64,000 nt of DNA, taken from the NCBI GenBank assembly GCA_030674475.1, contig JAUSCZ010000023.1, positions 87,819 through 151,818 of the forward strand, read 5' to 3'. Positions 5,479-38,669 of this stretch are shown here, piece by piece. The position numbers and the translations under genes are program-made. Position 1 is the first letter of the stretch. Every line of letters starts with the position of its first letter. The DNA is from Candidatus Omnitrophota bacterium. Its GTDB lineage: Bacteria > Omnitrophota > Gorgyraeia > Gygaellales > UBA12090. The notes below the pieces were generated by a model, which saw only the letters and a list, made by a program, of their open reading frames with translations, had not been told where the DNA came from and did not search any database.

Positions 5479-5516
5479 AATTTAAAATCACGAATAGATA
5501 TTGTCCTTAACTAACT

Positions 5517-8064: not shown

Positions 8065-8279
8065 TCTTTAAAGTTAAACCTAAAGCGGAAATATTAAAAA
8101 AGGCAATTGGGTCGCTTCAGCAAAAAGCAAAAAAAATAGAAGAAGAAGGAAAAGCAATAGAAATAGAAAATGAAAAAGTAAATATTTTTGAAAAATATAC
8201 AGCATTCAAGGATGTAATAGATAAAAATATTTTAAACGATCCTGAATTAATAAAGAAAGAGATAAAAAAATTTGGAGAA

Positions 8280-13639: not shown

Positions 13640-13944
13640 TACCTTTAAGCCATTATCTGATTTTATCGGCCATATTATTTTCTATCGGCCTTTACGGGGT
13701 CTTTACCCGTCGTAGCGCGATAGGGATTTTATTGTCTTTGGAGATTATGCTCAATGCCGTAAATATCAATTTTGTGGCCTTTGCTAAATTTATGGCTCCG
13801 CAAGCCCTCGCCGGGCAGATTTTTGTCATCTTTACTATTGGCGTAGCCGCGGCTTCCACCGTGGTGGGCCTGGCTATAATCGTGGCTATCTACCATAATT
13901 ATAAGACTATTTTTGTGGATGAGATAGATGTGATGAAATGGTAA
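13636..13944 (+). CDS. nuoK: NADH-quinone oxidoreductase subunit K
   Basis: 102 aa, three TM helices, ND4L-like; position in the operon. Confidence 0.85.
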   Translation: MIPLSHYLILSAILFSIGLYGVFTRRSAIGILLSLEIMLNAVNINFVAFAKFMAPQALAGQIFVIFTIGVAAASTVVGLAIIVAIYHNYKTIFVDEIDVMKW

Positions 13945-15857: not shown

Positions 15858-15929
15858 ATGAAAGTTTTCCCTTGCGTAAACGCTCGTAAATTTCTGCGAA
15901 ATTTACTTCGCACGCTACGGGATTAATTC

Positions 15930-15982
15930 GCGCATAAACTTATGCCTTCCTGCCTACCGGCAGGCAGGCATAAGTTTAGCGC
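15930..15982 (+). repeat. long imperfect palindrome / stem-loop in the nuoL-nuoM intergenic gap; its core TATGCC-TYCCTGCC-TACCGGCAGG resembles the palindrome inside the heptamer-array element at 59918-60024
   Basis: gcgcataaacttatgcc...ggcataagtttagcgc arms of about 15 bp with a central CCTACCGGCAGG, read directly. Confidence 0.5.
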
Positions 15983-16001
15983 TCATTAAGGAGGCTTAGC
16001 A

Positions 16002-17483: not shown

Positions 17484-18919
17484 TGAATTTATTGCTTGAT
17501 TTAAAATTTATCCAGCCGGAGATTATCTTAATTATTGCCTCTATCCTGGTATTGATGCTGGATTTTATATTCAAATCCAAGCGCCTGTTGGCCTATTTTT
17601 CCCTGTTTTCTTTATTTTCGGCTTTGCTGGTTTTGGGCCGGGGAACTCTATCGGCTCACAGCCTGTTTTCCGGGATGTTGGTCAGCGACCCCCTGGCTTT
17701 GTTTTTACGGATACTCTCGGTTTTTATTACGGCAATGGTAATTTTGCTCTCCATTGATTATCAGGAGATAGGCCCGGGAATGAGGTCAGAGCTTTATTCC
17801 CTCTTATTGATGGCGGCTTCGGCAATGATGTTTCTTTCCGCTGCCAACAATCTCTTGATGATTTATTTGGGGATTGAATTCATCAGCCTGATTTCTTATG
17901 TCCTGGCCGCCTACTGGAAAGGGAATCTTAAATCCAGCGAGGCCGGACTTAAATATTTTCTTTTTGGTACCGCCTGCTCCATCACTATGCTTTATGGTAT
18001 GTCAATTATCTACGGCATAACCGGCACCCTGGACTTACCGCAGATGAACCAGGCCTTGTTCAATAATCAATTTAGCCCTATAGTCATTTACATTGCTATC
18101 TTGATGGTCTCGGTGGGCCTGGCCTTTAAAGTGGCGATGGTGCCCTTTCATTTCTGGTGCCCGGATGTCTACGAGGGGGCTCCTACGCCGGTAACCGCCT
18201 TTTTCTCCGTGGGCCCTAAGCTGTTGGGATTCGCGGTGTTATTAAGATTTTTGCTCGGAGGCAGTGCTTTATTCTATCAGCATTGGATGCATCTTTTGGG
18301 GATTCTGGCCATCGCCACTATGGTGGTAGGAAATCTGACCGCCCTGGCCCAGACTAATATTAAGAGATTGCTGGCCTATTCTTCAATTGCCCACGCCGGC
18401 TATGCCTTAATTGGCTTAGTGGTCAATACCACTGCCGGATACATTAGCCTGTTTATTTATTTATCAACCTACATCGTGATGAATTTGGGGGCCTTTGCCG
18501 TGGTAATCGCGGTCTCGAACCAGACCAAAAGCGATGAGATCAAGGATTACGCCGGTTTATCGGTCCATTCCCCTTATTTAGCCGCCCTGTTTAGTCTGTT
18601 TCTGATTTCTTTAGCCGGCATCCCGCCCCTGGCCGGCTTTATCGGCAAGTTTTATATCTTTAGCTCGGCCATTAAAGAAGGTTTTCTCTACTTAGCGATT
18701 GCCGCGGTCCTCAACAGCGTCATTGCCGCCTACTACTATTTTAATATCATCCGCGTAATGTATTTAGTTCCCCCTTGCGCCTCAGCCGTAAAAATCAAGC
18801 CCTCCCCAGCCTTAAATCTGGCCCTAGTCTTAAGCTTACTCCTGGTTTTAGCTATGGGCTTGTATCCCAAACCGGTTATAGACTGGGTCAGTGCCGCCCT
18901 AGTCTTTCCCTCGCCCTAA
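17480..18919 (+). CDS. nuoN: NADH-quinone oxidoreductase subunit N (antiporter-like)
   Basis: 479 aa, ND2-like (FHFWCPDVYEGAPTPVTAFF). Confidence 0.9.
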   Translation: MMNLLLDLKFIQPEIILIIASILVLMLDFIFKSKRLLAYFSLFSLFSALLVLGRGTLSAHSLFSGMLVSDPLALFLRILSVFITAMVILLSIDYQEIGPGMRSELYSLLLMAASAMMFLSAANNLLMIYLGIEFISLISYVLAAYWKGNLKSSEAGLKYFLFGTACSITMLYGMSIIYGITGTLDLPQMNQALFNNQFSPIVIYIAILMVSVGLAFKVAMVPFHFWCPDVYEGAPTPVTAFFSVGPKLLGFAVLLRFLLGGSALFYQHWMHLLGILAIATMVVGNLTALAQTNIKRLLAYSSIAHAGYALIGLVVNTTAGYISLFIYLSTYIVMNLGAFAVVIAVSNQTKSDEIKDYAGLSVHSPYLAALFSLFLISLAGIPPLAGFIGKFYIFSSAIKEGFLYLAIAAVLNSVIAAYYYFNIIRVMYLVPPCASAVKIKPSPALNLALVLSLLLVLAMGLYPKPVIDWVSAALVFPSP

Positions 18920-18965
18920 AATTCATCTCAATCCGTTTATCACGTTTAACTATTTTCTCTCTATT

Positions 18966-19050
18966 TCCTCTCCCCTTGCGGGAGAGGTAAGAAATCCTCC
19001 CCTTACCAAGGGGAGGCGAGGAGGGGTTAGGTGAGGGGAAAAATTGCGAG
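18966..19050 (+). terminator. tandem GC-rich hairpins downstream of nuoN (cctctcccc/gggagagg, cctcccctt-acc-aaggggagg, ggggaaa-...-tttcccc)
   Basis: Three perfect 7-9 bp stems read directly after the operon's last stop codon. Confidence 0.5.
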
Positions 19051-19435
19051 TTTCCCCTGATAATTGACTGGCTACCCTAATTGTGATATTTTTATCGACA
19101 ATGGCAATGGCTGTGATAAACTGGGTGTATAAATTGGCCAAAGTAGCTTTGTTACGAGAGTGGAACTATTAGCGGGGTATTGGGATAGATTGGTAAGGCA
19201 ATGGAAGCGAATGATAAAGTTTTGGATTCGTCAGTCATTTGATAGCATCGAACAAGTTGAAAATAGATACGCGAATTTAACCGTGCCTGTTGAAGTGGCT
19301 TTGCAGTAGTTTCCACGAATCAACTTGTTGATAAGGGTACCAATGAAACTATGGAGAGAAACGAGGGATTAAAATCACTCACATTCAGGCGGTGTCATCA
19401 ATAGGGCATTGTGGCCACTGGGGAGCAAGGATATA

Positions 19436-19465
19436 ACACCTTGGCCTATCGGAAGGCCAAGGTGT
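19436..19465 (+). promoter_or_regulatory. perfect 11-bp-arm inverted repeat (acaccttggcc-tatcggaa-ggccaaggtgt) immediately upstream of the hsdM ribosome-binding site
   Basis: Read directly; followed by AAGGAG at 19476-19481 and GTG at 19489. Confidence 0.4.
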
Positions 19466-19488
19466 TCGCTTGTGCAAGGAGATCTCGA

Positions 19489-21495
19489 GTGACAATCAAT
19501 TTTAAAGAAAGCGCAAATTTTATCTGGGGTATTGCCGATCTTTTGCGCGGTGACTATAAACAGTCCGAATATGGTCGTATAATACTGCCTCTCACGGTTT
19601 TACGGCGTTTGGACTGTGTGCTTGAGCCGACCAAGGAAGCGGTTTTGTCATATCTTCCGCAGACCAAAGGCTTATCTCCGGAAGCCGCTGAGACGGTGCT
19701 TAAGAAAAAAGCGAAGTTGTCATTTTGTAATAAGAGCAAATTTGATTTCCAAAAACTGGTTGCCGACCCGAACGATATCGCCGTTAATCTTCGCAATTAC
19801 ATCAATGGTTTCTCCAAAAATGCCCGCAATATTCTGGAGCATTTCAACTTTGATGACCACATCGAGCGGCTCGATAAATCAAACCTCTTATATATGATCG
19901 TCAAGCGTTTTGCCGAAGTTGATTTGCATCCGAACAAGATCCAAAACATCGAGATGGGCTATATATTTGAAGAGCTTATCCGCAAATTCGCTGACTTATC
20001 AAACGAGACTGCCGGAGAACACTTTACGCCTCGTGAAGTTATTCGGCTTATGGTTAATATTCTCTTTCTAAACGACAAGGATGTCCTTACAAAGAAAGGA
20101 ATCGTTAAAACCTTATATGACCCGGCCTGTGGAACCGGCGGCATGCTTTCTGTGGCAGAAGAATATCTTCGCGAGCTTAACCCCGATGCGGATTTACGCG
20201 TATTCGGTCAAGAGTTAAATCCCGAGTCTTACGCTATTTGCAATTCCGATATGCTCATCAAGGGGCAGAATACCGATCACATCAAGTTTGGCAACTCTTT
20301 TACGCAAGACGGCCTTAAGGATGAAAAGTTTGATTATATGCTTAGCAATCCGCCTTTTGGCGTGGAGTGGAAAAAGATAGAAGAAGAGATTACTAAAGAA
20401 TACGAGCAGTTAGGTTTCTCCGGCCGTTTTGGCGCGGGGTTTCCGCGGATTAGCGACGGGTCTTTTCTGTTTCTACAGCATATGATTTCAAAGATGAAGC
20501 CGGAGAATGGCGGCGCGCGGCTGGGGATAGTCTTTAATGGTTCGCCTCTTTTTTCAGGCGGAGCCGGAAGCGGTGAAAGCGAAATCCGCAAATGGATCAT
20601 TGAAAATGATATGCTTGAGGCCATTATCGCGATGCCGGATCAGCTTTTCTATAACACCGGTATTTCAACTTATATCTGGATTGTTACCAACCGTAAGCTC
20701 AAGGATCGTAAAGGAAGAATTCAACTTATCAACGCGGTCGGATTCTTCAAGAAGATGTCCCGGAGCCTCGGCAACAAACGTAATGAGATCAGCGATGAAC
20801 ATATCGCGGAGGTCACAAAGATTTATGGCGCGTTTAAAAATGGGGAATTCAGCAAGATCTTTCCTAATGAGTATTTTGGGTATACCCGTGTAACGGTCGA
20901 GCGGCCATTGCGGTTGAATTTTCAAACTTCCAATGAGAGGATCTCCCGGCTGGATCAGCAAACAGGATTCGTTAATCTTGCCAAGTCTAAGAAAAAAGGC
21001 AGGGAAGGTATCAAAGAGGTTGAGGAAGGCGAAAAATCACAGAAAGCAATCAAAGCTATGCTTGCGGGAATAGACGGAACTCATTTCTATAAGAACCGGG
21101 AGAAGTTTGTAAGGGTTATGGAAGCGGCTATAGATAAGGCTGAATTAAAGATTAAAGCGCCGGTAATAAAAGCTATTCTTGGGGCCCTTTCGGAGAGGGA
21201 TGAGACAGCGGATGTGTGCAAGGACAGGGATGGTAAGCCGGAACCCGACAGCGAATTACGCGACTGTGAGAATGTGCCGCTCGCAGACAACATTGAAACC
21301 TATTTTAAGCGTGAAGTTCTACCTCACGTGCCGGACGCGTGGATGGACAGAGGCAGGGACAAGGTTGGATATGAGATCAACTTTACGAAGGAATTCTACA
21401 AATACAAACCATTGAGAAGCATCAAGGAGATACAAAAAGACATTTTAGAATTAGAGCAACAAACAGAAGGTTTATTAAAGGAGATTTTGCAATGA
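19489..21495 (+). CDS. hsdM: type I restriction-modification N6-adenine DNA methyltransferase subunit M (ORF is open from 19411; the GTG at 19489 has a perfect AAGGAG box 7 nt upstream)
   Basis: HsdM N-terminal domain (NFKESANFIWGIADLLRGDYKQSEYGRIILPLTVLRRLDCVL), motif I DPACGTGGML, motif IV NPPFG. Confidence 0.9.
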   Translation: MTINFKESANFIWGIADLLRGDYKQSEYGRIILPLTVLRRLDCVLEPTKEAVLSYLPQTKGLSPEAAETVLKKKAKLSFCNKSKFDFQKLVADPNDIAVNLRNYINGFSKNARNILEHFNFDDHIERLDKSNLLYMIVKRFAEVDLHPNKIQNIEMGYIFEELIRKFADLSNETAGEHFTPREVIRLMVNILFLNDKDVLTKKGIVKTLYDPACGTGGMLSVAEEYLRELNPDADLRVFGQELNPESYAICNSDMLIKGQNTDHIKFGNSFTQDGLKDEKFDYMLSNPPFGVEWKKIEEEITKEYEQLGFSGRFGAGFPRISDGSFLFLQHMISKMKPENGGARLGIVFNGSPLFSGGAGSGESEIRKWIIENDMLEAIIAMPDQLFYNTGISTYIWIVTNRKLKDRKGRIQLINAVGFFKKMSRSLGNKRNEISDEHIAEVTKIYGAFKNGEFSKIFPNEYFGYTRVTVERPLRLNFQTSNERISRLDQQTGFVNLAKSKKKGREGIKEVEEGEKSQKAIKAMLAGIDGTHFYKNREKFVRVMEAAIDKAELKIKAPVIKAILGALSERDETADVCKDRDGKPEPDSELRDCENVPLADNIETYFKREVLPHVPDAWMDRGRDKVGYEINFTKEFYKYKPLRSIKEIQKDILELEQQTEGLLKEILQ

Positions 21496-22583
21496 AAAAA
21501 CCATATGCTCCGCAATCATTGCCGCTTGATTCATTAGATTGGGTTAGATTTGTTTCGCTTATAGGACCGGCCAATGCCGAATTGGCGCGCTATGACGGAA
21601 TTCTGCAAGGGATTCTTAACCCTAGAGTACTGCTTTCCCCGCTAACAACCAATGAGGCAGTTCTTTCTTCAAAAATTGAAGGAACGCAGGCTTCGTTACA
21701 GGAAGTTTTGGAGTTTGAGGCATCCCCTGATTTAAGAACAGAGAAGCGAGAAGATATTCTGGAGATTCTCAATTATCGTAAGGCGATGCAGTTGTCCGTA
21801 GATTGGCTTAAGTCCAAGCCCATTACGCTTAATATGATCAAGGATGTTCATAACACGCTTTTAGACAGCGTGAGAGGTAAGGATAAAGCCCGCGGGCAAT
21901 TTCGCAGGTTACAAAATTGGATTGGGAAACCCGGGACGCCCATGGAAGAAGCTATGTATATTCCTCCAGACCCTATGTTTCTCATGGATCATTTATCCAA
22001 TTTTGAGAAATATATCCATTTTGATGAAAAAGACCGGCTTGTTCAGTTAGCCATCGTTCACGCGCAGTTTGAAATTATTCATCCTTTTTTAGATGGGAAT
22101 GGACGTTTGGGGCGTATTCTGATACCACTCTTTCTTTATGAGAAGAAAGCATTAGGGTCGCCGATGTTTTATATCAGTGAATATCTGGAATCCCATCGCG
22201 ATGAATATTACGCCAGGTTGAACGCGATAACCTCCGATGGGCAATGGAACGACTGGATTGAGTTTTTCTTAAAAGCCGTGCTTGAACAGGCAAAGAATAA
22301 TAGCGCAAAGGCAAAGGCTATCTTAGATCTTTACAATGCCAAAAAAGATAAGATTATGGCCGTAACTCATTCGCAATATACAGTTAAAATTTTGGATACT
22401 TTATTCAAGACGCCGATTTTTAATATGACTGATTTTATAAAAATTTCAGGTATTCCCAAAGCAAGCGCAACCCGAATTCTGAATATTCTTAAAAAAGAAG
22501 AAATGCTGGCGGTTTTACATCAAGGGAGAGGGAGATCTCCCGGGGTTATGGCTTTTACCAAATTATTAAAGATTTGTGGCTAA
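21492..22583 (+). CDS. Fic/Doc family protein (AMPylase-type, with C-terminal winged-helix) inserted between hsdM and hsdS
   Basis: Canonical Fic motif HPFLDGNGRLGR; overlaps the hsdM stop by 4 nt. Confidence 0.85.
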   Translation: MKKPYAPQSLPLDSLDWVRFVSLIGPANAELARYDGILQGILNPRVLLSPLTTNEAVLSSKIEGTQASLQEVLEFEASPDLRTEKREDILEILNYRKAMQLSVDWLKSKPITLNMIKDVHNTLLDSVRGKDKARGQFRRLQNWIGKPGTPMEEAMYIPPDPMFLMDHLSNFEKYIHFDEKDRLVQLAIVHAQFEIIHPFLDGNGRLGRILIPLFLYEKKALGSPMFYISEYLESHRDEYYARLNAITSDGQWNDWIEFFLKAVLEQAKNNSAKAKAILDLYNAKKDKIMAVTHSQYTVKILDTLFKTPIFNMTDFIKISGIPKASATRILNILKKEEMLAVLHQGRGRSPGVMAFTKLLKICG

Positions 22584-22735
22584 TAAAATTGCCTTTATCG
22601 TACATAACAATTCTTGTGTATATTCTATTGCGCGCAAATTACTTTGTGTCTCGTAATATCATATAAATGAGACACAAATTGGTTTATGAATAATGCGTGA
22701 AACACGAGCCATTTATAGCATAACTCATTATTTAA

Positions 22736-22861
22736 CAGACGGTTATGAAATACATAAAAATAGAATATCAGTCTTTACGTAGCCTTGAGGAAATTAGCAA
22801 AGATATCCTGGCCCTGGAAAAAGGAACTGAGGGGTTGATGGATGAGATTTTGGGAGGATAG
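22736..22861 (+). pseudogene. remnant of a second hsdM 3' end (about 40 codons)
   Basis: Translation TVMKYIKIEYQSLRSLEEISKDILALEKGTEGLMDEILGG parallels the C-terminus of the intact HsdM (TKEFYKYKPLRSIKEIQKDILELEQQTEGLLKEILQ). Confidence 0.6.
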
Positions 22862-22866
22862 ATAGT

Positions 22867-24213
22867 ATGAGTAACAATGATAATTATAGGATTGGAGAAC
22901 ATATCCGTGAAGACGGAAAGAAATATGCGGAGTTTGATACATTGGGTTTTGACTCTACGCGGGAAATTTTCATAAAAGTCATTAAGCCTGCGGGGCCTCC
23001 TCTGACGATTGGACTATATGGCTCGTGGGGAAGCGGAAAAACTGAGATGATAAAGGCGCTGGAAGAGGATTTAAAAACCAGCGACTGTTTAACGTTGATT
23101 TTTGATGCGTGGAAATATAGATATGAATGCAACTTGATTTTGCCTCTTATCTGTGCCCTTCAGCGGGAGCATCTATCTAAAATTGAGGATGCCAAAGATA
23201 GCGCTAAGAAGATAGTAACAAGCGCCGCGCTGGTTATGGCTAATCAGTTTCTTAAAAATAAGATAGGAGTTAATATCGGAGAAGTAAAGATGGCTCTCCA
23301 GACTTATGAGGAGGAATACAAACACTACAAGAAATACGATGATAATGTTGCGTTGATAGAGAAAGAATATAAGGATTTTATTGGGGTCCTTTTGAATAAA
23401 ACAGAGAAGAAAAAATTAACAGTATTCATCGATAATCTTGATCGTTGCCTTCCGGATATTACTGTAAACCTTTTAGAGGATATTTCTAGTTTTCTTTCGA
23501 TTCAAGGGGTGCCATGTATTTACGTGTTAGCAATGGATAAAGAGAATGTTATTAAGGCAATAAATCATCGTTACCCGGATTTTGACGGAATGCATTATTT
23601 AGAGAAAATCGTACATATCGGATTGAAGATGCCTTTGCCACGTAAAAGAGAAAATCACAACTCCAGTTATGGGACATATCATTTTCTCAAAAGATATGAG
23701 TGGGGTAAAAAATATGAAGCAGTTTCAAAATCTGGGGATTCAAGGGATAAATTGTTTGAAAGATTAGTTGCTATCGATAATGTGTTTGGAGGTGACCTTT
23801 TAGGAAATCCTCGGCGTGCAGAGCGTATCGTGAATAAGCTGATGATGTTAGAGATAATGGGGTTATTCCAGGCAGAAAGAAGCCATGACGACGTCTCTAT
23901 GTTGATTTTTTTATTGCTTCTTTGCGAGTATTTCCCGAAAATTTACGAGTCTTTAAAAGATAATGCGGATTTTAAATATCTGTTGGAAAATTTACAGATG
24001 TGCAAACAAAAAGAAACCACGCCATTTAATCAAAGAAAAGAAAGAGAAAGGCTTGAACCAAACTCGCGCATTCCAAACGAGATTATCTTTAATGCATATT
24101 GCGACGATGAAAAATTTTTCCATTTTATTAGAGACTTTGCAGATTTGGCAAATATTAATGATCTGCCAAAAAGGTTGATGGAAATAAAAAGTAATTTGGG
24201 TTATATCGGATGA
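22867..24213 (+). CDS. KAP-family P-loop NTPase
   Basis: Walker A GLYGSWGSGKT near the N-terminus, Walker B-like VFIDNLDRC, 448 aa; typical KAP NTPase architecture. Confidence 0.7.
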   Translation: MSNNDNYRIGEHIREDGKKYAEFDTLGFDSTREIFIKVIKPAGPPLTIGLYGSWGSGKTEMIKALEEDLKTSDCLTLIFDAWKYRYECNLILPLICALQREHLSKIEDAKDSAKKIVTSAALVMANQFLKNKIGVNIGEVKMALQTYEEEYKHYKKYDDNVALIEKEYKDFIGVLLNKTEKKKLTVFIDNLDRCLPDITVNLLEDISSFLSIQGVPCIYVLAMDKENVIKAINHRYPDFDGMHYLEKIVHIGLKMPLPRKRENHNSSYGTYHFLKRYEWGKKYEAVSKSGDSRDKLFERLVAIDNVFGGDLLGNPRRAERIVNKLMMLEIMGLFQAERSHDDVSMLIFLLLLCEYFPKIYESLKDNADFKYLLENLQMCKQKETTPFNQRKERERLEPNSRIPNEIIFNAYCDDEKFFHFIRDFADLANINDLPKRLMEIKSNLGYIG

Positions 24214-24229
24214 TGGCGAAGAAGAACTT

Positions 24230-25474
24230 ATGAAAAGGTATCCTGTATATAAAAATTCGGGGATTGAGTGGATTGGGAAAGTGCCGCAAGATTGGCAAGT
24301 TAATCGCCTGAAAACAGTCTGTACTTTTACCTATGGAGATTCTTTGGCGGATGAAGATCGGATTGAGGGCGGCATCCCTGTTTATGGCTCAAACGGAATT
24401 GTCGGTTATCATAACAAAGCAATTACCCATAAGCCGTGCATTATTATCGGGCGCAAAGGTTCATACGGCAAAGTGAATTTTTCGCAAACAGAATGCTTCC
24501 CAATTGATACTACCTATTTTGTTGATGATCGTTCAGCAAAATGTGATTTGAAATGGCTTAGCTATGTTTTGCCGCTTTTAGAACTGGATAAATTTTCCAA
24601 GGACACCGGCGTTCCAGGGCTTAATCGCGAAGATGCGCATGATAAAAGAGTGCCAATTCCTGAAAGTGAGGTTAAAAAAGTCATTACTGATTATCTTAAC
24701 CGCAAGACGGCGCAGATTGATGACCTGATTGCTAAAAAAGAGCGCATGATTGAGCTTCTCAAGGAGGAGCGGACGGTGATTATCAATCAGGCTGTGACAA
24801 AGGGGCTTAATCCCAAAGCTGAAATGAAAGAATCTGGCATTGAATGGTTAGGTAGGGTACCGAAACATTGGAGACTAAAACGGCTGAAATATGTCGTCAA
24901 TATCAATCCAGTAAGACCAAATACAATTTCAGAAGAATCAAAGGTTATTTTTATAGCCATGGAATCTATGAGTACTGACGGAACTTATGACAATTCTGTT
25001 ATGCGTTCATATTTAGAAGTAAAGACCGGATTTACTTATTTTGCTGAAGACGATGTAATTTTTGCTAAAATAACACCATGTTTTGAAAATGGCAAGGGGG
25101 CATTACTCCGTAATTTAGGATCTGCCATTGGCTTTGGCTCAACAGAATTTCATGTTTTGCGTTCAGTGAGAAATGAAACAATTCCAGAATATTTGTATTT
25201 TCTTACAATCTCTGGGTTATTCCGGAGATTAGGCGAAGCATTTATGCAGGGCGTGGCTGGACAGAAAAGAGTAACAAACGATTTTGTGCAAAATTTTCTT
25301 ATTGGAGTGCCTCCGATTGATGAGCAAGAGGCCATTTCCTCTTTTCTTGCAGATAAAATAAGAAAAATCGATGCGCAAGTGGCGCGAGAACAAAAATCAA
25401 TCGAGCTGCTCAAAGAATACCGCACTTCTTTGATCTCTGAAGTAGTAACGGGGAAAATCTGTTTATGCGAGTAA
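24230..25474 (+). CDS. hsdS: type I restriction-modification specificity subunit S (two target-recognition domains)
   Basis: Two variable TRDs separated by the conserved central repeat (TAQIDDLIAKKERMIELLKEERTVIINQAVTKGL) and C-terminal repeat (IRKIDAQVAREQKSIELLKEYRTSLISEVVTGKI). Confidence 0.85.
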   Translation: MKRYPVYKNSGIEWIGKVPQDWQVNRLKTVCTFTYGDSLADEDRIEGGIPVYGSNGIVGYHNKAITHKPCIIIGRKGSYGKVNFSQTECFPIDTTYFVDDRSAKCDLKWLSYVLPLLELDKFSKDTGVPGLNREDAHDKRVPIPESEVKKVITDYLNRKTAQIDDLIAKKERMIELLKEERTVIINQAVTKGLNPKAEMKESGIEWLGRVPKHWRLKRLKYVVNINPVRPNTISEESKVIFIAMESMSTDGTYDNSVMRSYLEVKTGFTYFAEDDVIFAKITPCFENGKGALLRNLGSAIGFGSTEFHVLRSVRNETIPEYLYFLTISGLFRRLGEAFMQGVAGQKRVTNDFVQNFLIGVPPIDEQEAISSFLADKIRKIDAQVAREQKSIELLKEYRTSLISEVVTGKICLCE

Positions 25475-25483
25475 TGTTACGAG

Positions 25484-26692
25484 GTGTTGATTATGCCACA
25501 TAGTATTCCGGCACTTGTTACGCCATCGGTTATGAGGTGGGCGCGAGAACAGGCAGGGTTTGACATCCCGACTGCTGCGCATCGTATTGGACGTTCAGAA
25601 GCAGATATTCGAGCATGGGAAAATGAAGCGACAACGACAAGGCCAACTTTGGCGCAAGCTCGTAAAGCAGCTGAAGTATATCGTAGGGCACTGGCAGTTT
25701 TTTATCTATCGGAACCACCCAAAGGATACCAAGTTATTAGGGACTTTAGACATTTAACAGATGCCAGTCTGCAAGCATTTAGTCCTGAATTGATGCAGGT
25801 AATTAATTTATTAGAATATAGACAAGAGTGGTTAAGAGAGTGGCGGATTGAAGAAGGGGAAAAAAAGATTGATTTTATTGGGTCTATAGCGATTACTATG
25901 GCGCCAGATAAAGTCGCTGGTGAAATAAAAGATAAGCTAGGCGTTGATTTCAAAGAGCATTTTAAGCGTCGGACTCGCGAGGATACATTATTGTTATGGG
26001 TTCGTTATGCAGAAGCTTTAGGCATTAATATCTGTCGTCAAGGCGAAATTGCATGTGAAGAAGCTAGGGGCTTCGTACTAACGGATGAATACGCCCCCTT
26101 TGTGTATATTAATAGTTCTGATGCAAAGGTGGCCCAACTTTTTACCTTAGTTCATGAGTTGGTACATTTGTGGCTTAACTTGTCAGGTATTTCTAATCTT
26201 GAAGGTATTGGGCGCACTGGGAAGACAGAAAACGACCGGATTGAAATATTTTGCAATAAAGTCGCATCGTTAGTATTGCTGGATGATAAACTATTCTTAG
26301 AGAAATGGGCAAAAACAGATACAAACGACCCTCTTGAAAAAAAGATAGCAGATGTCGCTAACATTGCAAAGGTTAGCGATGAAGTAGTTGCTAGGCGTCT
26401 TTTAGACAAGAGTATAATTACCATTGATAAATACGTTGATTTACGCAGGCAGTTTCAAGAGCGCTGGATACAGCATAAAAAAGACGCAAAGATTAGAAGA
26501 CAGGATTCCAAGGGTTATCCTTCTCCGCACTTAATGGCTGTCTTGGGAAATGGAAGGCTTTTTACCACAGCTGTCTTAGATTCATATTCTGGGGGATTTT
26601 TGTCGAGTACAATCGCGGCTAGTTTGTTAAATGCGAAAGTTAACAATTTCCAGAAGCTATCCGTATATGCCGGTATGGGTGAGGGGAAATAA
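25484..26692 (+). CDS. ImmA/IrrE-family zinc metallopeptidase fused to an N-terminal Xre-type HTH (COG2856-like)
   Basis: HEXXH motif HELVHLWL, N-terminal HTH region, 402 aa. Confidence 0.7.
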   Translation: MLIMPHSIPALVTPSVMRWAREQAGFDIPTAAHRIGRSEADIRAWENEATTTRPTLAQARKAAEVYRRALAVFYLSEPPKGYQVIRDFRHLTDASLQAFSPELMQVINLLEYRQEWLREWRIEEGEKKIDFIGSIAITMAPDKVAGEIKDKLGVDFKEHFKRRTREDTLLLWVRYAEALGINICRQGEIACEEARGFVLTDEYAPFVYINSSDAKVAQLFTLVHELVHLWLNLSGISNLEGIGRTGKTENDRIEIFCNKVASLVLLDDKLFLEKWAKTDTNDPLEKKIADVANIAKVSDEVVARRLLDKSIITIDKYVDLRRQFQERWIQHKKDAKIRRQDSKGYPSPHLMAVLGNGRLFTTAVLDSYSGGFLSSTIAASLLNAKVNNFQKLSVYAGMGEGK

Positions 26693-27186
26693 TGGACTTG
26701 AATAAGAAATACTGTCTTGATGCCAATGCATTTATTGAGCCATGGAATAAATATTTCACTATTAACCGGTGTCCTGGATATTGGGATATTTTAGAGGATT
26801 TGGGCAAGAAGCTAATTATTTTTTGCCCTGATCAAGTTAAGCGAGAAATTGATAGGGTCGACGATGGTCTAAAATCGTGGCTCGATGCGAGGCATTTCTT
26901 CTTTAGGCAAGAAACAGAGGTTGTACAGCAACATGTGCGTACGATTTTAAAAGCATTTCCTCAGTTAATCAATGTTGGGGCAAATCGGTCTATGGCCGAT
27001 CCATGGGTTATTGCTCACGCAATGGCTGAACAGGCGGTTGTAGTAAGTAAAGAATATCTGGTGCGTCCGGGACAGAAGAGTGCACAAATAAAGGTCCCAG
27101 ATGTGTGTAAGCATTTCAAGATCGCCTGTATTAATGATTTTAGTTTTATTGATGAGCTTGGCATAAAATTTAAGGCTAGTATTTAA
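26692..27186 (+). CDS. DUF4411-family protein (recalled as a predicted PIN-like nuclease partner of ImmA/IrrE; not verified)
   Basis: 164 aa; start overlaps the ImmA/IrrE stop (ATGA). Family assignment is from memory of the sequence pattern and the usual ImmA/IrrE pairing. Confidence 0.45.
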   Translation: MDLNKKYCLDANAFIEPWNKYFTINRCPGYWDILEDLGKKLIIFCPDQVKREIDRVDDGLKSWLDARHFFFRQETEVVQQHVRTILKAFPQLINVGANRSMADPWVIAHAMAEQAVVVSKEYLVRPGQKSAQIKVPDVCKHFKIACINDFSFIDELGIKFKASI

Positions 27187-27619
27187 ATTTGCGGATGAGG
27201 CAGTTTAAGTGCTATTTATAGTTTTTTTGAAGGGTTAATGAGGAGCTGGGGGGATTGATAAAATGAAAAGGGGCTGTTAGGTTCGGGCCAACAACCCCTC
27301 AGAAATGCCGACGGCTTTACTTGGTAAAGCCTTTATATAGTATATCATAGCATAGCATATATGCAAAAAAATAAAATTTTAGTGGATGGTGCAAAGTTGT
27401 TATTGAAATACGTGCATCAACAATGCAAGAAATATTACTCCAACCGCTGGTTGGAGTAATCGGCTGAGATGTTAGCTATATTTTGTTTTGGGCCTGATTT
27501 TTTATGTAACGCGATGTAACTGAAAGTGTTTAAAAATATAAACATTATTACAATACATTGATAATAAATGAGTTATGAGCATAAAGCATGTATCTTATAT
27601 GTAATTTTTGAAATAATTT

Positions 27620-30600
27620 ATGAGGCTTAGAATGGTTTCAATTATTAACGAAAAAGCTTTTGAAGAATCCATCGAACAAAGCCTGATTGATCATGGCGGC
27701 TATGTGAAGGGCGATCCGAATAATTTCAGTCGGGATCTGGCGATTGATCAAGCGGTCCTGTTTCAGTTCATCAAGGATACCCAGAAGAATGTTTGGGATA
27801 GCTTGACGGCTATCCATGGCGCGGATGTTGAAAAGAAGTTTTTATATCGTCTCAATCAAGAACTGGACGCGCGTGGAATGCTTGATTGTTTGCGCCGCGG
27901 CGTCACTGATTATGGCAAGAAAATCATGCTCGCCTATTTTAAGCCGGTCAGCAAATTAAACCCGGAAACCCAGAAACTGTTCGATAAAAACATCCTCACC
28001 GTTACCCGGCAGGTTCATTACAGCACCAAAGATGAAAGCTCGATAGACATGCTTTTGTCTATCAACGGCCTTCCTGTGGCTACCATTGAGTTAAAGAACC
28101 CGTTTACCGGTCAGGATGTGGATGATGCCAAGCGGCAGTATAAATATGACCGCGACGAGCGTGAGCTTTTGTTTCAGTTTAAGAAGCGCGCCCTTGTCCA
28201 CTTTGCCGTGGATACGGATGTTATTTACATGACTACGCGCCTTCAGGGGAGCAAGACAAGGTATTTGCCTTTTAATAAAGGCTATAACAAAGGTTCCGGG
28301 AATCCCCCGAATCCAAGCGGCCATAAGACAGCGTATTTATGGGAAGTCGTCTTGGTAAAAGATAGCTGGATGGATATCTTGGGAAGATTTTTGCATTTAG
28401 AAGTTGAAGAAAAGGCTTTTGATGGTAGAAAGTTCAAGATTGAGACACTGATATTCCCGCGCTATCACCAGCTTGATAGCGTCCGGAAGCTTTCCTCCGA
28501 TGCTCTTGCAAATGGAGCAGGAAAGAATTATTTGATTCAACACAGCGCCGGGAGCGGAAAAAGCAATTCTATCGCATGGCTTGCCTATCATTTGGCGGGC
28601 CTGTATGACAAAGGCGATAAGCGGATATTTGACGCAGTGATTGTGATCACCGATCGCATTGTTCTGGATAAGCAGTTACAGGATACGATTTATCAATTTG
28701 AGCACAAGTTAGGGGTGGTTGAGAAGATTGACAAAGATTCTACCCAATTGGCTCAAGCTCTCACCAGCGGAACGAATATTATTATCACCACGCTTCAAAA
28801 ATTTCCCTTTGTTTTGGATAAGGTTGGGGCATTGCCTAGGCGAAATTACGCGGTTATTGTTGATGAGGCGCATAGCTCGCAGGGTGGCGAATCCGCTAAA
28901 AAAATGAAAGACGTTCTTTCGGCCCTTGATAAAACCGAGATCGTATCGGAGAAGGCCGATGAGGACGATGATATTGAAGATGAAATCCGTGAATCCATGC
29001 TTAAACGGGGCCCTCGGCCAAATTTGAGCTTCTTTGGATTTACCGCAACACCCAAAGCAAAAACGCTGGAGTTTTTTGGACAAAAGGGCATAGACGGCAA
29101 ACCACAACCATTTCATCTTTATTCTATGCGGCAGGCGATCGAAGAAAGATTTATTTTTGATGTCCTTGAAAACTACACTAGCTATCAAACATTTTTCCAG
29201 TTGTCCAAGAAGATCGAAGACGACCCGAATATGAATAAGAAAAAGGCCGCCTGCGCGATTGCGCGCTTCTTGACGCTCCATCCGTATAACTTGGCGCAGA
29301 AGACCGAGGTCATGATTGAGCATTTCCGGCAGGTCACTATGAAAAAGATCGGTGGTAAAGCTAAAGCGATGGTAGTTACGGCTTCGCGCGAGCATGTGGT
29401 GCGGTATAAACATGAGTTTGACCGTTATCTAAAAGAAAAAGGGTATAAAGATATAAAGGCTCTCGTTGCTTTTTCCGGAAAAGTTTTATTGGATGGAATT
29501 CCTCCGGAATATACCGAAGAGGGTATTAATACCTATATTGATAAACAAGGGCAAACCAGATATGTTAGGGAAAAGGAGTTACCTGGGAAGTTTGCTACTT
29601 CTGAATATCAGATTTTACTTGTAGCAGAAAAATATCAGACCGGCTACGATGAGCCGCTTTTGCATACCATGTATGTGGATAAGCGGCTTGACGGCGTTAA
29701 AGCGGTGCAGACGATGAGCCGTTTAAACAGGACGTGTCCGGGTAAAGAAGATACATTTATCTTGGACTTCGTTAATAAGCGCGAAGACATATTAGCGGCT
29801 TTCCAGCCATATTATGAGCAGACCCAGTTAAGCGATGTTACGGATCCGAACAAGCTTTACGACCTCAAAACCAAGCTGGATTCGTTTAGGGTGGTATATC
29901 AATCAGACATTGATGCATTCTGTGTCGTATTCTTCAGGAATAAAGAATTACAGACGAAGCGCGAGCATGCTCAATTGAATTCAATAGTAGATGTGGCGGT
30001 TGAGCGGTTTAAGGTAATTGAAAAAGATGAGCACAAAGAAGATTTTGTCAATACCTTGGGCGTATTTGTTCGGCTGTATGCGTTCTTGGCGCAGATTATG
30101 CCCTTTCAGGATATTGAGCTCGAGAAATTCTACGCCTATTCCCGACTATTGTTGAAAAAACTTCCGGGGCCTGACCGCGGCGAAAGGTATCATCTTGGCG
30201 ATGAGGTCGCTCTTGAGTATTACCGCCTGCAAAAAATAGCTGATGGCAAAATTCAATTGCAAAAGGATTCGGGTGCGGCTATCGAGCCGATTTCAGAGGC
30301 CGGAACAAAGAAAGACAAAGACGAATACGCCTTGTTGTCCGAAATAATCAATCTTCTTAATGACAGATTCGGGACTGATTTTACCGAAGCCGACAAGCTT
30401 TTCTTCGATCAGATTGAAGAAGAAATGGTTATGGATGAGAAATTAGGCGTTCAAGCCAAGACCAACACAATGGATAATTTCAAATACGGGTTTGAAGATG
30501 TGTTTATCGCGAAGCTTGTTGACCGGATGGATCAGAATCAGGATATCTTCAACAAAATTATGGATGACAAAGCTTTCGCGGCTGTCGTAAAAGACTATTT

Positions 30601-31150
30601 ATTGAAAAAGGTTTACGATCGCTTAAATAAGGACAGTGGCGATCAGCCAGAACGTCCGTTGTTTTTTAAAGATGTGAGTCCGGATGAAGAGGTTGCGGAG
30701 GACCAGAAGTATGTTGATTTTCTGCCGGTATATTCGCTCCAGGCTGTAGCGACAAGCTTTGGTAAGGAAGAGCACGTGGAAATGCTTGGATGGAAGAAAA
30801 TAAAAAATAAACGGCTGAATAAAGACATGTTTATTGCTCAGGTTGTTGGTAAGTCAATGGAGCCGACAATTTTGGATGGTAGTTTTTGTCTTTTCCGCTT
30901 TGAGCGGGGCGGCTCGCGCAATGGTTTGGTGGTGCTTGTCGAATCTCGGTTGGTTACCGATCCTGAAACCAGCCAGAAATTTACAATCAAGCGCTATAAA
31001 AGTGAAAAAGAAACTTTGCCCGATGGCGGGTGGAGGCACAAGCGCATAATACTCTCACCTGATAACAAAGACTTTAAAGATATCACTCTGGAGAATGTGA
31101 GCGGTGATGATTTTAGAATCGTAGCAGAATTTGTAGAGGCATTATCTTAA
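27620..31150 (+). CDS. hsdR: type I restriction enzyme R subunit with a C-terminal LexA/UmuD-like S24 serine peptidase domain fusion
   Basis: SF2 helicase motifs (GSGKS Walker A, VIVDEAHSSQ DEAH box, GFTATP, QTMSRLNR). The C-terminal ~110 aa carry S24 motifs: VVGKSMEPTILDGSFCLF (Ser nucleophile), FTIKRYK (catalytic Lys), RIILSPDNKDF...GDDFRIVAEFVEAL. Confidence 0.85.
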   Translation: MRLRMVSIINEKAFEESIEQSLIDHGGYVKGDPNNFSRDLAIDQAVLFQFIKDTQKNVWDSLTAIHGADVEKKFLYRLNQELDARGMLDCLRRGVTDYGKKIMLAYFKPVSKLNPETQKLFDKNILTVTRQVHYSTKDESSIDMLLSINGLPVATIELKNPFTGQDVDDAKRQYKYDRDERELLFQFKKRALVHFAVDTDVIYMTTRLQGSKTRYLPFNKGYNKGSGNPPNPSGHKTAYLWEVVLVKDSWMDILGRFLHLEVEEKAFDGRKFKIETLIFPRYHQLDSVRKLSSDALANGAGKNYLIQHSAGSGKSNSIAWLAYHLAGLYDKGDKRIFDAVIVITDRIVLDKQLQDTIYQFEHKLGVVEKIDKDSTQLAQALTSGTNIIITTLQKFPFVLDKVGALPRRNYAVIVDEAHSSQGGESAKKMKDVLSALDKTEIVSEKADEDDDIEDEIRESMLKRGPRPNLSFFGFTATPKAKTLEFFGQKGIDGKPQPFHLYSMRQAIEERFIFDVLENYTSYQTFFQLSKKIEDDPNMNKKKAACAIARFLTLHPYNLAQKTEVMIEHFRQVTMKKIGGKAKAMVVTASREHVVRYKHEFDRYLKEKGYKDIKALVAFSGKVLLDGIPPEYTEEGINTYIDKQGQTRYVREKELPGKFATSEYQILLVAEKYQTGYDEPLLHTMYVDKRLDGVKAVQTMSRLNRTCPGKEDTFILDFVNKREDILAAFQPYYEQTQLSDVTDPNKLYDLKTKLDSFRVVYQSDIDAFCVVFFRNKELQTKREHAQLNSIVDVAVERFKVIEKDEHKEDFVNTLGVFVRLYAFLAQIMPFQDIELEKFYAYSRLLLKKLPGPDRGERYHLGDEVALEYYRLQKIADGKIQLQKDSGAAIEPISEAGTKKDKDEYALLSEIINLLNDRFGTDFTEADKLFFDQIEEEMVMDEKLGVQAKTNTMDNFKYGFEDVFIAKLVDRMDQNQDIFNKIMDDKAFAAVVKDYLLKKVYDRLNKDSGDQPERPLFFKDVSPDEEVAEDQKYVDFLPVYSLQAVATSFGKEEHVEMLGWKKIKNKRLNKDMFIAQVVGKSMEPTILDGSFCLFRFERGGSRNGLVVLVESRLVTDPETSQKFTIKRYKSEKETLPDGGWRHKRIILSPDNKDFKDITLENVSGDDFRIVAEFVEALS

Positions 31151-31181
31151 GGTAAAAATAAATAAATAAGGGATAGCTCAA

Positions 31182-31209
31182 TTGATTTAAAAGGTTTATT
31201 TGTTATAAT
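31182..31209 (+). promoter_or_regulatory. sigma70-like promoter TTGATT-N16-TATAAT upstream of the ABC-F gene
   Basis: ttgatt at 31182-31187, tataat at 31204-31209. Confidence 0.45.
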
Positions 31210-31306
31210 GGCGCTAAACTTCCTAACACTGGTTTGTTTATGCCGAATTCGTGGCGCGATGTCTACCGCGGCAATCGTTTTTTATGAAAGGTTAAAGGGA
31301 TAAAAT

Positions 31307-32941
31307 ATGATTTCAGTTAATAATGTGTCATTACAATTCGGTCAGCGTAAGCTGTTCTCAGAGGTCAGCATTGTTTTTTCGCCGGGCAACTGCTATGGCT
31401 TGATTGGCGCCAATGGTTCGGGTAAATCCACATTTTTAAAGATTCTTTCCGGAGAGGTTGATTCGTCCGCGGGAGAAGTTGCTATTGCTCCGGGTAAGCG
31501 GCTCTCTACCTTAAGACAGGATCAATTTGCCTTTGATGAATATACGGTATTAACCACGGTGATTATGGGGCATAAAAAGCTTTATGAAATTATGCTGGCC
31601 AAAGACGCGATATATTCTAAAACGCCTTTTACCGACGCTGACGGAATGCACGCCGCGGAGCTGGAGGGAGAGTTCGCTGAACTAGAGGGATGGAACGCTG
31701 AATCCGACGCGGCTAAGTTGTTAAGCGAACTGGGTATTGAGGAATTCCTGCATACGGCGCAAATGAAAACGCTTGAGGCCGGGCAGAAGGTGCGAATATT
31801 GTTGGCCCAGGCCTTATTTGCTAATCCCGATATCCTGCTCTTGGATGAGCCTACCAATTATCTGGATGTTGAGTCGAGTATGTGGCTGGAGGAATTTCTC
31901 TACGCTTTTGAGAATACCGCTATCATTGTCTCGCACGACCGGCATTTCTTAGATAAAGTCTGCACCCATATCGCGGATATTGATTTCGGTAAGATCCATC
32001 TCTATCCCGGCAATTATACTTTTTGGTCGGAGGCCAGCCAGCTGGCGGCGCGCCAGCGCAGTGAATCTAACAAAAAGATAGAAGAGCGGCGCAAGGAATT
32101 GAAAGATTTTATTATGCGTTTTTCCGGCAACGCCTCTAAGGCCCGCCAGGCCACCAGCCGCAAAAAAACCCTGGAAAAGCTTACTATAGAGGACATTGAA
32201 CCTTCTTCGCGCAAATACCCCTATATCAATTTTGAACCGGAGCGCGAGGCCGGCAATGACCTCCTGAATATAGATCATCTGTTTAAAACAGTTGACGAGC
32301 AGAGTATGTTTGAGCGGTTGAATATTACCATTCGCAGGGGTGATAAGGTTGCTTTTGTCGGCCCAAATGACCTGGCCAAGACCATACTTTTTCAGATTTT
32401 GATGAATGAGGCTCAATCGGATAGCGGCACTTTTAAGTGGGGCTCTTCTACCAAGCGGGCGTATTATCCCAGAGATAATTCCGCGTTTTTTAGCCGGGAC
32501 CTGACCATTATTGATTGGCTCAGGCAGTATTCCGCCAACACGGAACAGGAGTTTATCCGCGCCTTCTTAGGCCGGATGCTTTTTTCCGGGGAAGAATCGC
32601 TTAAGCCGGTAACTGTTTTATCCGGAGGAGAGAAGGCGAGGTGTATGTTAGCCCGGATGATGGTTTCTCAGCCTAATGTGCTTATTCTGGATGAACCGAC
32701 CAATCATCTGGACTTGGAAGCGATCACCTCCTTAAACCGAGGCCTGGAGAAATTCCGCGGGACCATCTTGTTTTCTTCCCACGATCATCAGTTAGTCCAG
32801 ACGGTAGCCAACCGCATTATCGAGATTACCCCTAAGGGATATATTGACCGGGTGGACACCACCTATGATGAATACCTGGCCAATGAGCAGATAAAACAAC
32901 AGCGCCATGAACTATACGCGGGGCGCCCGCTAAGTAAATAA
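31307..32941 (+). CDS. ABC-F family ATPase (two nucleotide-binding domains, no TM domain)
   Basis: NBD1 Walker A GANGSGKST, Walker B ILLLDEPTNYLD. NBD2 signature LSGGEKAR, Walker B ILILDEPTNHLD. NBD2 Walker A (GPNDLAKT) and NBD1 signature (LEAGQ) are degenerate. Confidence 0.8.
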   Translation: MISVNNVSLQFGQRKLFSEVSIVFSPGNCYGLIGANGSGKSTFLKILSGEVDSSAGEVAIAPGKRLSTLRQDQFAFDEYTVLTTVIMGHKKLYEIMLAKDAIYSKTPFTDADGMHAAELEGEFAELEGWNAESDAAKLLSELGIEEFLHTAQMKTLEAGQKVRILLAQALFANPDILLLDEPTNYLDVESSMWLEEFLYAFENTAIIVSHDRHFLDKVCTHIADIDFGKIHLYPGNYTFWSEASQLAARQRSESNKKIEERRKELKDFIMRFSGNASKARQATSRKKTLEKLTIEDIEPSSRKYPYINFEPEREAGNDLLNIDHLFKTVDEQSMFERLNITIRRGDKVAFVGPNDLAKTILFQILMNEAQSDSGTFKWGSSTKRAYYPRDNSAFFSRDLTIIDWLRQYSANTEQEFIRAFLGRMLFSGEESLKPVTVLSGGEKARCMLARMMVSQPNVLILDEPTNHLDLEAITSLNRGLEKFRGTILFSSHDHQLVQTVANRIIEITPKGYIDRVDTTYDEYLANEQIKQQRHELYAGRPLSK

Positions 32942-38339: not shown

Positions 38340-38669
38340 ATGGCAACAAGTAATTGCAGAGATTTTGGCATTGAAAACATCAATGCTTTCCGCGTTAATG
38401 AAAATATTCACGATTTTTCAAATTTGATTAAAGATTATAAGCATAGATTAAAAACAACAGCAGAAAAATGTTCACGTTCATATCCTTCAGGAATAGTAGA
38501 ATATGATGAATATTATCCTGCAAAATCAAGGGATATCATCGACCAGATTGACTGTCTTCTTGCCCAGCACTACGGTTTCACCCACGAGGAGTTGGATTTC
38601 ATCATTAACTACGACAACAAATACCGCATGGGCAAGGAACTGGACAATGGGGAGGAGAATGAAAAATGA
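38340..38669 (+). pseudogene. 3'-terminal fragment of a DNA methyltransferase / type IIG-like restriction-modification gene
   Basis: C-terminal block LAQHYGFTHEELDFIINYDNKYRMG is the characteristic tail of N6-adenine MTase/Eco57I-like proteins; no catalytic domain is present upstream. Confidence 0.5.

Follow-up and report, generated by a model that had tools for sequence, protein, structure and literature searches.

A type I restriction-modification operon of an Omnitrophota bacterium that probably carries exchangeable defence passengers, with a LexA-like module on its HsdR

Does a type I restriction-modification (RM) operon with foreign genes between those for its own subunits encode one machine, or does it house passengers that work alone? 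The question is raised by a locus in a 64,000-nucleotide stretch of DNA from a Candidatus Omnitrophota bacterium (contig JAUSCZ010000023.1; "the window" below means that whole stretch). Here, seven co-oriented open reading frames (ORFs) on the + strand plus one short remnant lie between nuoL/M/N and an ABC-F ATPase gene. A first-pass annotation had listed eight elements, all on the + strand (hsdM, fic, an hsdM remnant, a KAP NTPase gene, hsdS, an ImmA/IrrE gene, a DUF4411 gene and hsdR), and had proposed that the combination, with a peptidase-fused HsdR, may form one co-regulated system. All eight elements are present, positions 19894-27990 are reproduced exactly by a Logan contig, the Fic and KAP proteins match proteins of a Candidatus Omnitrophota metagenome-assembled genome at 100% identity, and every domain call (Fic, KAP, ImmA/IrrE, DUF4411, HsdM, HsdS, HsdR) is backed by profile searches against Pfam, NCBIfam and PADLOC, the source of the domain calls given below. 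The idea of a single system fared less well. We consider it likely that this is an intact chromosomal type I RM operon from a lineage that habitually carries passengers, here three autonomous modules, which are exchanged by recombination.

By its domain content the RM core is complete, with HsdM, an HsdS that has two target-recognition domains, and an HsdR that has nuclease and SF2 translocase regions. The gene hsdM (19489..21495, + strand) is predicted to encode the type I m6A DNA methyltransferase subunit, with PF12161 (HsdM_N), PF02384 (N6_Mtase), a full-length PADLOC match to MTase_I (3e-294) and an intact NPPF motif at residue 313; its TIGR00497 score of 93 bits is under the equivalog cut-off of 242.75. 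Its ORF is open from 19411, and we take GTG 19489 as the likely start (668 amino acids, aa), given that DNA homology to relatives begins there and that a Shine-Dalgarno sequence, AAGGAG, lies at 19476. Likely starts are also shifted for the ImmA gene and hsdR, on the basis of relatives and called genes. The specificity subunit gene hsdS (24230..25474, +) has PF01420 (Methylase_S) in two stretches and matches PADLOC Specificity_I at 6.4e-104. The hsdR core (27632..30721, +) comprises an N-terminal PD-(D/E)xK-type nuclease region, an SF2 translocase and a C-terminal helical region, recognized by PF04313 (HSDR_N), PF18766/PF04851 (SWI2_SNF2/ResIII) and PF22679 (T1R_D3-like). Its AGSGKS and DEAH motifs are intact, and its TIGR00348 score of 201 bits is under the subfamily cut-off of 284.55. 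The likely start is ATG 27632 (1172 aa); the longer ORF from 27620 has 1176 aa. The protein ends in a Peptidase_S24 module, which bears out the earlier claim of a peptidase-fused HsdR and is considered further below.

The first passenger gene, fic (21492..22583, +), overlaps the hsdM stop by 4 nt with its ATG and is predicted to encode a SoFic-type Fic-family AMPylase. The protein has PF13784 (Fic_N) and PF02661 (Fic), matches PADLOC SoFic over residues 3-361 (4.6e-112), and keeps both the active-site motif HxFx(D/E)GNGRxxR (HPFLDGNGRLGR at residue 197) and the inhibitory N-terminal helix motif SSKIEG. Relatives at ~71% identity occur away from RM genes in three settings: one is flanked by housekeeping genes, one lies next to a DUF4011 helicase in an island that has an integrase, and one is beside a PLD protein. 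The second passenger (22867..24213, +) is a KAP-family P-loop NTPase of 448 aa with an intact Walker A motif (GSWGSGKT), PF07693 (KAP_NTPase; 1.6e-36, 126.5 bits, cut-off 20) and a match to the PADLOC single-gene defence candidate PDC-S20 (3.9e-44). Its relatives at 41-58% identity outside type I RM are found in a phage-like island, an integrase island with a DUF1016-SNase gene, and a Bat operon. Assignment of the KAP protein as QatA of a Qat system was rejected, because the match reaches 104 bits against a 600-bit cut-off and there are no Qat partner genes (QatB/C/D) at the locus.

The third passenger is a pair of genes. The first of these (25493..26692, +; 399 aa from ATG 25493, in an ORF from 25484) is predicted to encode an HTH-ImmA/IrrE (M78, COG2856) zinc metallopeptidase, a putative antitoxin or regulator, with PF06114 (Peptidase_M78; 2.1e-12, 47.4 bits), the HEXXH motif HELVH at residue 224 and a weak N-terminal HTH_31 match (17.7 bits, under the cut-off). 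The start of the second (26692..27186, +) overlaps its stop by 1 nt; the product is a PIN-like DUF4411 protein (PF14367, 6.4e-43) and a putative nuclease toxin. Over its full length ImmA matches PDB 9vzy_A, an "HTH cro/C1-type domain-containing protein" (2.1e-40), DUF4411 matches 9vzy_D and 9vzz_A, each a "DUF4411 family protein" (4.9e-16), and PDB 9VZY is a solved complex of homologues of the two. Of 23 related loci, with identities down to 26%, 20 have the two genes side by side; in the remaining three, the contig stops just past ImmA. The closest relatives of the pair (73-81% identical) all lie between hsdS and an S24-type hsdR; pairs at 26-47% identity are found by type IIG enzymes or between housekeeping (thrS and holB-like) genes. 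The suggestion in the first-pass annotation that this is a toxin-antitoxin (TA)-like module is well founded, given the conserved two-gene pair and its publication as a putative toxin-antitoxin: Matelska et al. 2017 (PMC5499597) proposed HTH-DUF955(ImmA) plus DUF4411 as a three-component TA. According to the same study, PIN-like TA modules can be transcriptionally coupled to type I subunits, in arrangements that vary between close species (PMC5499597). ImmA also has weak PADLOC matches to RmrA (6.5e-10), CapP (3.7e-8) and CapH (1.9e-5). We did not adopt either assignment that these suggest: the RmrA match of RosmerTA is partial (peptidase region), RmrT is absent and DUF4411 has no PADLOC match, and for CapH/CapP there are no genes of a CBASS system present beyond the weak matches.

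Whether these genes act together can be judged from about 35 related loci. The HsdR relatives are 58-93% identical, those at or above 80% coming from metagenome-assembled genomes (MAGs) labelled Omnitrophota and Planctomycetes, and those at ~60% from Flavobacterium and others. By script, the gap between hsdM and hsdS (M-S) is occupied in 15/17 loci and that between hsdS and hsdR (S-R) in 20/22. The script missed a 314-aa DUF4238 gene in locus L005 and omitted four Flavobacterium-type loci, and M-S occupancy is about 18/21 once the ORF list is also read. The occupants vary: DUF4238, an unnamed 256-263-aa family, YhcG/DUF1016, a PLD-like protein or KAP in the M-S gap, and Schlafen-AlbA_2/HATPase_c_4, DUF3800 plus a partner, DUF3644, a 200-aa family or ImmA-DUF4411 in the S-R gap. 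The earlier view that the genes between hsdM, hsdS and hsdR are defence- or TA-type accessory cargo in a type I RM operon is supported. There are other loci of this RM lineage with Fic or KAP, namely Fic (70% identity) upstream of hsdM in L017, hsdM-Fic (95%) in L055, hsdM-KAP-hsdS (KAP 61%) in L012, and KAP (90%)-hsdS-ImmA-DUF4411-hsdR in L033.

One explanation of the locus is that Fic, KAP, ImmA-DUF4411 and the S24-bearing HsdR act with the methyltransferase as a single, co-regulated machine. The shared orientation with overlaps or short gaps is consistent with this, as is the recurrence of sub-arrangements, namely the L033 order just given and hsdM-Fic-remnant...hsdS-ImmA-DUF4411 in L055. 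Yet the full set of Fic, KAP and ImmA-DUF4411 was found in no other locus recovered. L055 has a 121-aa IS200-like gene where KAP would be, plus an extra Schlafen-like gene, L032 and L034 likewise have other M-S cargo, and the closest RM relatives in general (HsdR 70-93% identical) carry different cargo in the same slots. Each module is found alone elsewhere, away from type I RM genes. HsdR proteins with the S24 module occur with many cargos, most of their loci lacking Fic, KAP or ImmA-DUF4411, and close HsdR relatives lack S24. We therefore regard a single integrated system as very improbable. Given the varying cargo, the modules in unrelated contexts and the recombination scars described next, we favour a mosaic defence operon over a dedicated multi-component system.

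The first of these scars is the hsdM 3' remnant (22745..22861, +), a 38-codon ORF homologous to the HsdM C-terminal tail, and it had been rightly recognized from the start. It is identical to the L012 HsdM tail at 24/32 positions (tblastn 1e-11) and to the window's own HsdM at 19/30. An origin as a DNA duplicate of the window's hsdM 3' end was rejected, as only 9-nt chance matches were found; the remnant evidently stems from a different hsdM allele. The DNA of L012 6677-8156, its hsdM-KAP junction, is collinear with window 22778-24271, which runs from the remnant into KAP. From this collinearity we conclude that the order hsdM-KAP-hsdS came first, and that a later recombined hsdM-fic segment left the old hsdM tail behind. 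The structure hsdM-fic-spacer-remnant is also present in L055 at 84% DNA identity, and thus the event is not recent. The remnant ORF is intact with start and stop in both lineages (window 22745-22861; L055 2279-2395), which differ by 12 synonymous and 10 non-synonymous codons, more constraint than a dead fragment would predict; it has no clear ribosome-binding site.

Scars of the same kind are seen at hsdR. In L055, a 43-codon hsdR 5' remnant (5809-5940) follows DUF4411 and is itself followed by the Schlafen-like gene, and in L027 an hsdR 5' remnant (10001-10108) likewise stands ahead of a Schlafen-like gene. Such remnants (25-36 codons by another count) lie just upstream of Schlafen-AlbA_2/HATPase_c_4 cargo that precedes a full hsdR. 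Cargo exchange seems to duplicate RM gene ends, the hsdR 5' remnants mirroring the hsdM 3' remnant of the window. Within hsdS, DNA is conserved relative to relatives only at the start, centre and end of the gene. Together, the scars and this pattern in hsdS point to recombination as the means by which cassettes are exchanged, with conserved segments of the RM genes as its anchors.

In the mosaic operon that we propose, the RM enzyme (R2M2S) would serve as the first line of defence. The passengers, a SoFic-type Fic AMPylase translationally coupled to hsdM, a KAP P-loop NTPase and a TA-like ImmA/IrrE plus DUF4411 pair, would be expressed from the RM operon and would each probably work alone, as a second line based on abortive infection or a toxin. 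They would be swapped between RM loci by recombination anchored on conserved RM gene ends, and imprecise exchange would leave short duplicated gene ends behind.

The high slot occupancy (~85-90% across the lineage) would also be explained if the passengers were latent effectors that are checked by, or monitor, the type I enzyme and fire when a phage anti-restriction protein disables it. There is a precedent in prrC, which is embedded in the EcoprrI type IC locus and is activated when T4 Stp inhibits the enzyme (PMC12707154), and the translational coupling of fic to hsdM would fit such guarding. However, there is no PrrC or RloC homologue at the locus (no PADLOC model for these anticodon nucleases matched any of nine locus proteins), the cargo families also occur without RM genes, ImmA-DUF4411 has its own antitoxin-like partner, and cargo and RM subunits were not seen to co-vary. 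We consider this explanation unlikely. It is less probable still that the passengers are addiction (post-segregational killing) modules or selfish hitch-hikers that stabilize or exploit the RM locus without phage defence. The toxin-antitoxin architecture of ImmA-DUF4411 (PMC5499597) and the frequent turnover shown by the recombination scars would be expected of such elements. On the other hand, neither Fic nor KAP is paired with an antitoxin here, SoFic and RosmerTA-type systems protected against phage when tested (10.1101/2022.05.11.491447), and the other slot occupants are of nuclease or Schlafen type, typical of defence islands.

How the mosaic operon may be expressed is suggested by its spacing. 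The leader (19435..19488, +), as read from the sequence, has a perfect 12-bp inverted repeat (19435-19466) directly upstream of the hsdM ribosome-binding site. The 4-nt overlap of hsdM with fic, the gaps of 16 nt between KAP and hsdS and of 18 nt between hsdS and ImmA, and the 1-nt overlap of ImmA with DUF4411 make a single transcript from hsdM through DUF4411 plausible. The tight packing noted by the first-pass annotation holds for most junctions; it does not hold for the 283-nt gap between fic and KAP, which comes in addition to the 445-nt spacer before hsdR. The 283-nt gap contains the hsdM remnant and, before it, an AT-rich non-coding spacer (22584..22744, +; GC 0.31) whose 10-bp inverted repeat (22643-22678), downstream of fic, is also found in L055. 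The inverted repeats at 19435-19466 and 22643-22678 have no motif in common, and could be operators or terminators.

The spacer before hsdR (27187..27631) is also AT-rich (GC 0.34) and has three hairpins, at 27268-27300, 27313-27331 and 27434-27460, the last a perfect 12-bp inverted repeat; one of the three is terminator-like on the + strand. In the nearest relatives the gap preceding hsdR is just 18-70 nt, and the 445-nt spacer is unique to this genome among close relatives, although 61 nt of it resemble the region upstream of the L005 hsdR. It contains no ORF, has no Rfam match and is not repeated elsewhere in the window. We suspect that it probably terminates the upstream unit and supplies the hsdR promoter.

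The C-terminal module of HsdR (30722..31150, +) is LexA-like and matches PF00717 (Peptidase_S24) over residues 1056-1171, counted in the 1176-aa ORF, with 29.6 bits (cut-off 23.3). Both residues of the catalytic dyad, Ser1079 (GKSMEP) and Lys1124 (TIKRY), are invariant in 18/18 aligned HsdR relatives. Ahead of them is a strand that resembles a cleavage site, LPVYSLQAVA|TSF, whose putative scissile bond is Ala1044-Thr1045 instead of the canonical Ala-Gly or Cys-Gly; in the clade of this HsdR, P1' is Thr or Ser, not Gly; AAAG is found in one HsdR relative. The Ala of AVA|TSF is 35 residues before Ser1079, a spacing that is likewise 35 residues in E. coli LexA (A84-S119). In an AF2 model of moderate quality (mean pLDDT 65.5), the module resembles LexA: the best 26 Foldseek matches in the PDB are all C-terminal domains of LexA or lambda CI (probability 0.97-1.0, TM-score 0.35-0.62). 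A phmmer search of the S24 region against PDB sequences returned nothing, and a profile search gave weak LexA matches (E ~0.09). PF00717 is found in about 50 of the 120 best HsdR clusters. Given that relatives up to 88% identical lack S24 and that S24-plus and S24-minus HsdRs interleave in a neighbour-joining tree, the module is evidently optional in HsdR.

The module is not confined to HsdR. A search of 1.84 billion representative proteins recovered 1548 relatives (860 at E <=1e-10) in proteins of 170-1878 aa, with the module at the extreme C-terminus in almost all. Among 81 relatives of at least 280 aa, which were tallied for site and partners, Ser and Lys are kept in 81/81, and the site triplet is canonical in 72/81, being AAG in 52 (the LexA/CI-type bond) and ACG in 20 (the UmuD-type bond); a triplet like that of the window (VAT, AAT or AAS) is found in 7/81. 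Pfam partners in this set are ResIII, SLFN-g3/DUF2075 helicase, Type_ISP_C, Eco57I and MmeI methylases, MZB, STAND NTPases, and AlwI, HNH, GIY-YIG, PLD and TnsA-like nucleases; PADLOC identifies type IIG, I, II and III restriction enzymes, DruE, Nhi/AbiO/PDC-S41-like proteins and PbeA. Members of the subfamily were noted as proteins P0293-P0442 and at L069 6959-9429. Against PLSDB plasmids, a tblastn search with the module gave a single match, in an unannotated Halomonas replicon, where the S24 module is encoded by an ORF in a separate frame that follows, and overlaps, the ORF of an Nhi-like DUF2075 helicase, with PIN_8, AbiEi/AbiEii and NACHT genes as neighbours.

We infer that, through the S24 module of HsdR, a DNA-damage (RecA*) signal may control how stable or how active the R subunit is. 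More broadly, we tentatively raise the possibility that the module serves immune enzymes that cut DNA as a portable, built-in switch responsive to DNA damage. In this scenario, RecA filaments would form when the host chromosome is damaged or has unmodified sites, the module would excise itself at Ala-Gly or Cys-Gly, and the enzyme, now ending in ...AAA-COOH, would be inactivated or degraded. ClpX reportedly recognizes the ssrA tag and the N-terminal fragment of cleaved LexA by their ends (Neher et al. in 2003), which ...AAA resembles. The outcome would be a hard-wired "restriction alleviation" across type I, ISP/IIG, II and III enzymes, DruE, Nhi-like helicase-nucleases and STAND NTPases. Alternatively, the same cleavage might activate the enzymes. 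Given the resemblance of the new ...AAA end to ClpX tags and the known ClpXP-dependent loss of HsdR, switching nucleases off would be the most plausible sense of a RecA* link; such loss after DNA damage is the established mechanism of restriction alleviation for type IA/IB enzymes such as EcoKI (PMC12707154). The Ala-Thr site of the window's HsdR clade would mark a derived form of the switch.

In a different explanation, the S24 module of HsdR is a non-catalytic dimerization or docking domain or a pseudo-protease. The G85D mutant of LexA does not cleave and LexA C-terminal domains dimerize, and both facts fit such a role, as do the Thr or Ser at P1' in the window clade in place of Gly and the absence of the domain from HsdR relatives as close as 88% identity. 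Against it are the Ser and Lys that are invariant in all 18 HsdR relatives and all 81 wider members, the LexA-like spacing of 35 residues from Ala to Ser, and the Ala-Gly or Cys-Gly bond kept in 72/81 wider members. We regard a non-catalytic module as possible but doubtful, and a damage-responsive switch likewise as no firmer than tentative. A literature search for an S24 or LexA-like module with HsdR, type I/ISP restriction, Druantia, DUF2075, anti-phage function or restriction alleviation found no description, and a 2025 review of RM biology makes no mention of S24 (PMC12707154).

Several points weigh against our reading of the locus as a mosaic of autonomous defence modules under an RM operon. 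The Fic protein scores 180.1 bits with NCBIfam SoFic (NF046030), below the 550-bit equivalog cut-off, and is therefore by this measure a family relative of Shewanella SoFic, not an equivalog; PDC-S20, the family matched by KAP, is a candidate defence family. The high slot occupancy may mean functional coupling of the cargo to the RM complex, not hitch-hiking. To judge by the 445-nt spacer and its terminator-like hairpin, hsdR may be transcribed as a unit of its own. Self-cleavage of this HsdR is uncertain, because its site is Ala-Thr, not Ala-Gly. Finally, the related loci are mostly metagenome bins and short contigs.

The locus is flanked by housekeeping genes, nuoL/M/N (13938-18919, with nuoN nearest) on the left and the ABC-F ATPase gene (31307-32941) on the right. 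We looked for signs of an integrative element: there are no tRNA genes within the window, the island borders have no direct or inverted repeat of at least 10 nt in common, and an Rfam scan of 18800-31500 gave a chance 5.8S match only. In other loci, cargo evidently attaches outside the two internal slots too, an SduA_C (Shedu-type) gene lying directly after hsdR in L001 (13538-14761) and a 792-aa KAP NTPase gene directly before hsdM in L002 (2243-4621). A YhcG/DUF1016 PD-(D/E)xK nuclease gene 7.5 kb downstream of the island (window 38666-39700) is of the same family as the occupant of the hsdM-hsdS gap in L006 and L022. HsdM residues ~501-595 (window ~20911-21195), about 95 aa, are absent from the Flavobacterium-type relatives L019, L020, L022 and L023; HsdM has 575-603 aa in this type and 668 aa in the Omnitrophota type. 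Further upstream, at window 1477-9068, four successive ORFs (1333, 300, 480 and 262 aa) match no Pfam family; part of the stretch in which they lie has the lowest GC of the first 10 kb (0.35-0.45).

From the perspective of operon evolution, the island is a further example of type I RM operons as carriers of defence and TA cargo. Such operons are already known, and both TA modules inside type I operons and the pairing of ImmA with DUF4411 have been published. The leftover hsdM 3' and hsdR 5' ends add unusually clear sequence evidence of the joints at which cargo is exchanged. The least ordinary part of the locus is the S24-fused R subunit, which, with the breadth of the S24 fusion, we did not find described in the literature searched. 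How the chromosome is spared from a cell's own restriction enzymes after damage is understood just for a few E. coli type I enzymes, in which ClpXP degrades HsdR. The fusion of S24 to dozens of unrelated restriction and anti-phage enzymes, mostly with canonical sites, points to a general link between the SOS signal and the nucleases of innate immunity that may be tested directly.

Comparison with known systems places each part of the locus. Accessory genes between hsd subunit genes, with content that varies between strains, are a feature shared with the EcoprrI-PrrC locus and with Campylobacter type I loci, which reportedly carry "restriction-linked ORFs" (rlo; Miller et al. in 2005). Unlike EcoprrI-PrrC, the window has no PrrC/RloC homologue, and it has three unrelated modules, not one. 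SoFic is a standalone defensive Fic protein whose defence was reported by Millman et al. (10.1101/2022.05.11.491447). The window's Fic shares its Fic_N plus Fic architecture, the intact motif and a full-length PADLOC match; it differs in that fic is translationally coupled to hsdM instead of standing alone, and in its sub-equivalog score. With the TA proposal of Matelska 2017 (PMC5499597), the window has in common the identical domain pair in identical order, whereas the members of its sub-clade (73-81% identical) are found specifically between hsdS and hsdR of a single RM lineage. RosmerTA, a peptidase-antitoxin design reported as a defence system by Millman et al. (10.1101/2022.05.11.491447), and CapH/CapP are alike in pairing an M78 zinc-peptidase plus HTH protein with a toxin, or in controlling an effector; here the toxin is DUF4411, and the likeness is confined to the peptidase and HTH domains. 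With LexA, UmuD and lambda CI, the HsdR module shares the Ser-Lys dyad, a cleavage-site strand with LexA spacing and, in the model, a LexA-like fold, but it is fused to the C-terminus of an enzyme and not to a DNA-binding repressor domain, and the window clade has Ala-Thr. A further parallel is the ClpXP-dependent restriction alleviation of EcoKI, which is a proteolytic control of HsdR after damage; the tie of S24 to alleviation is a proposal made here.

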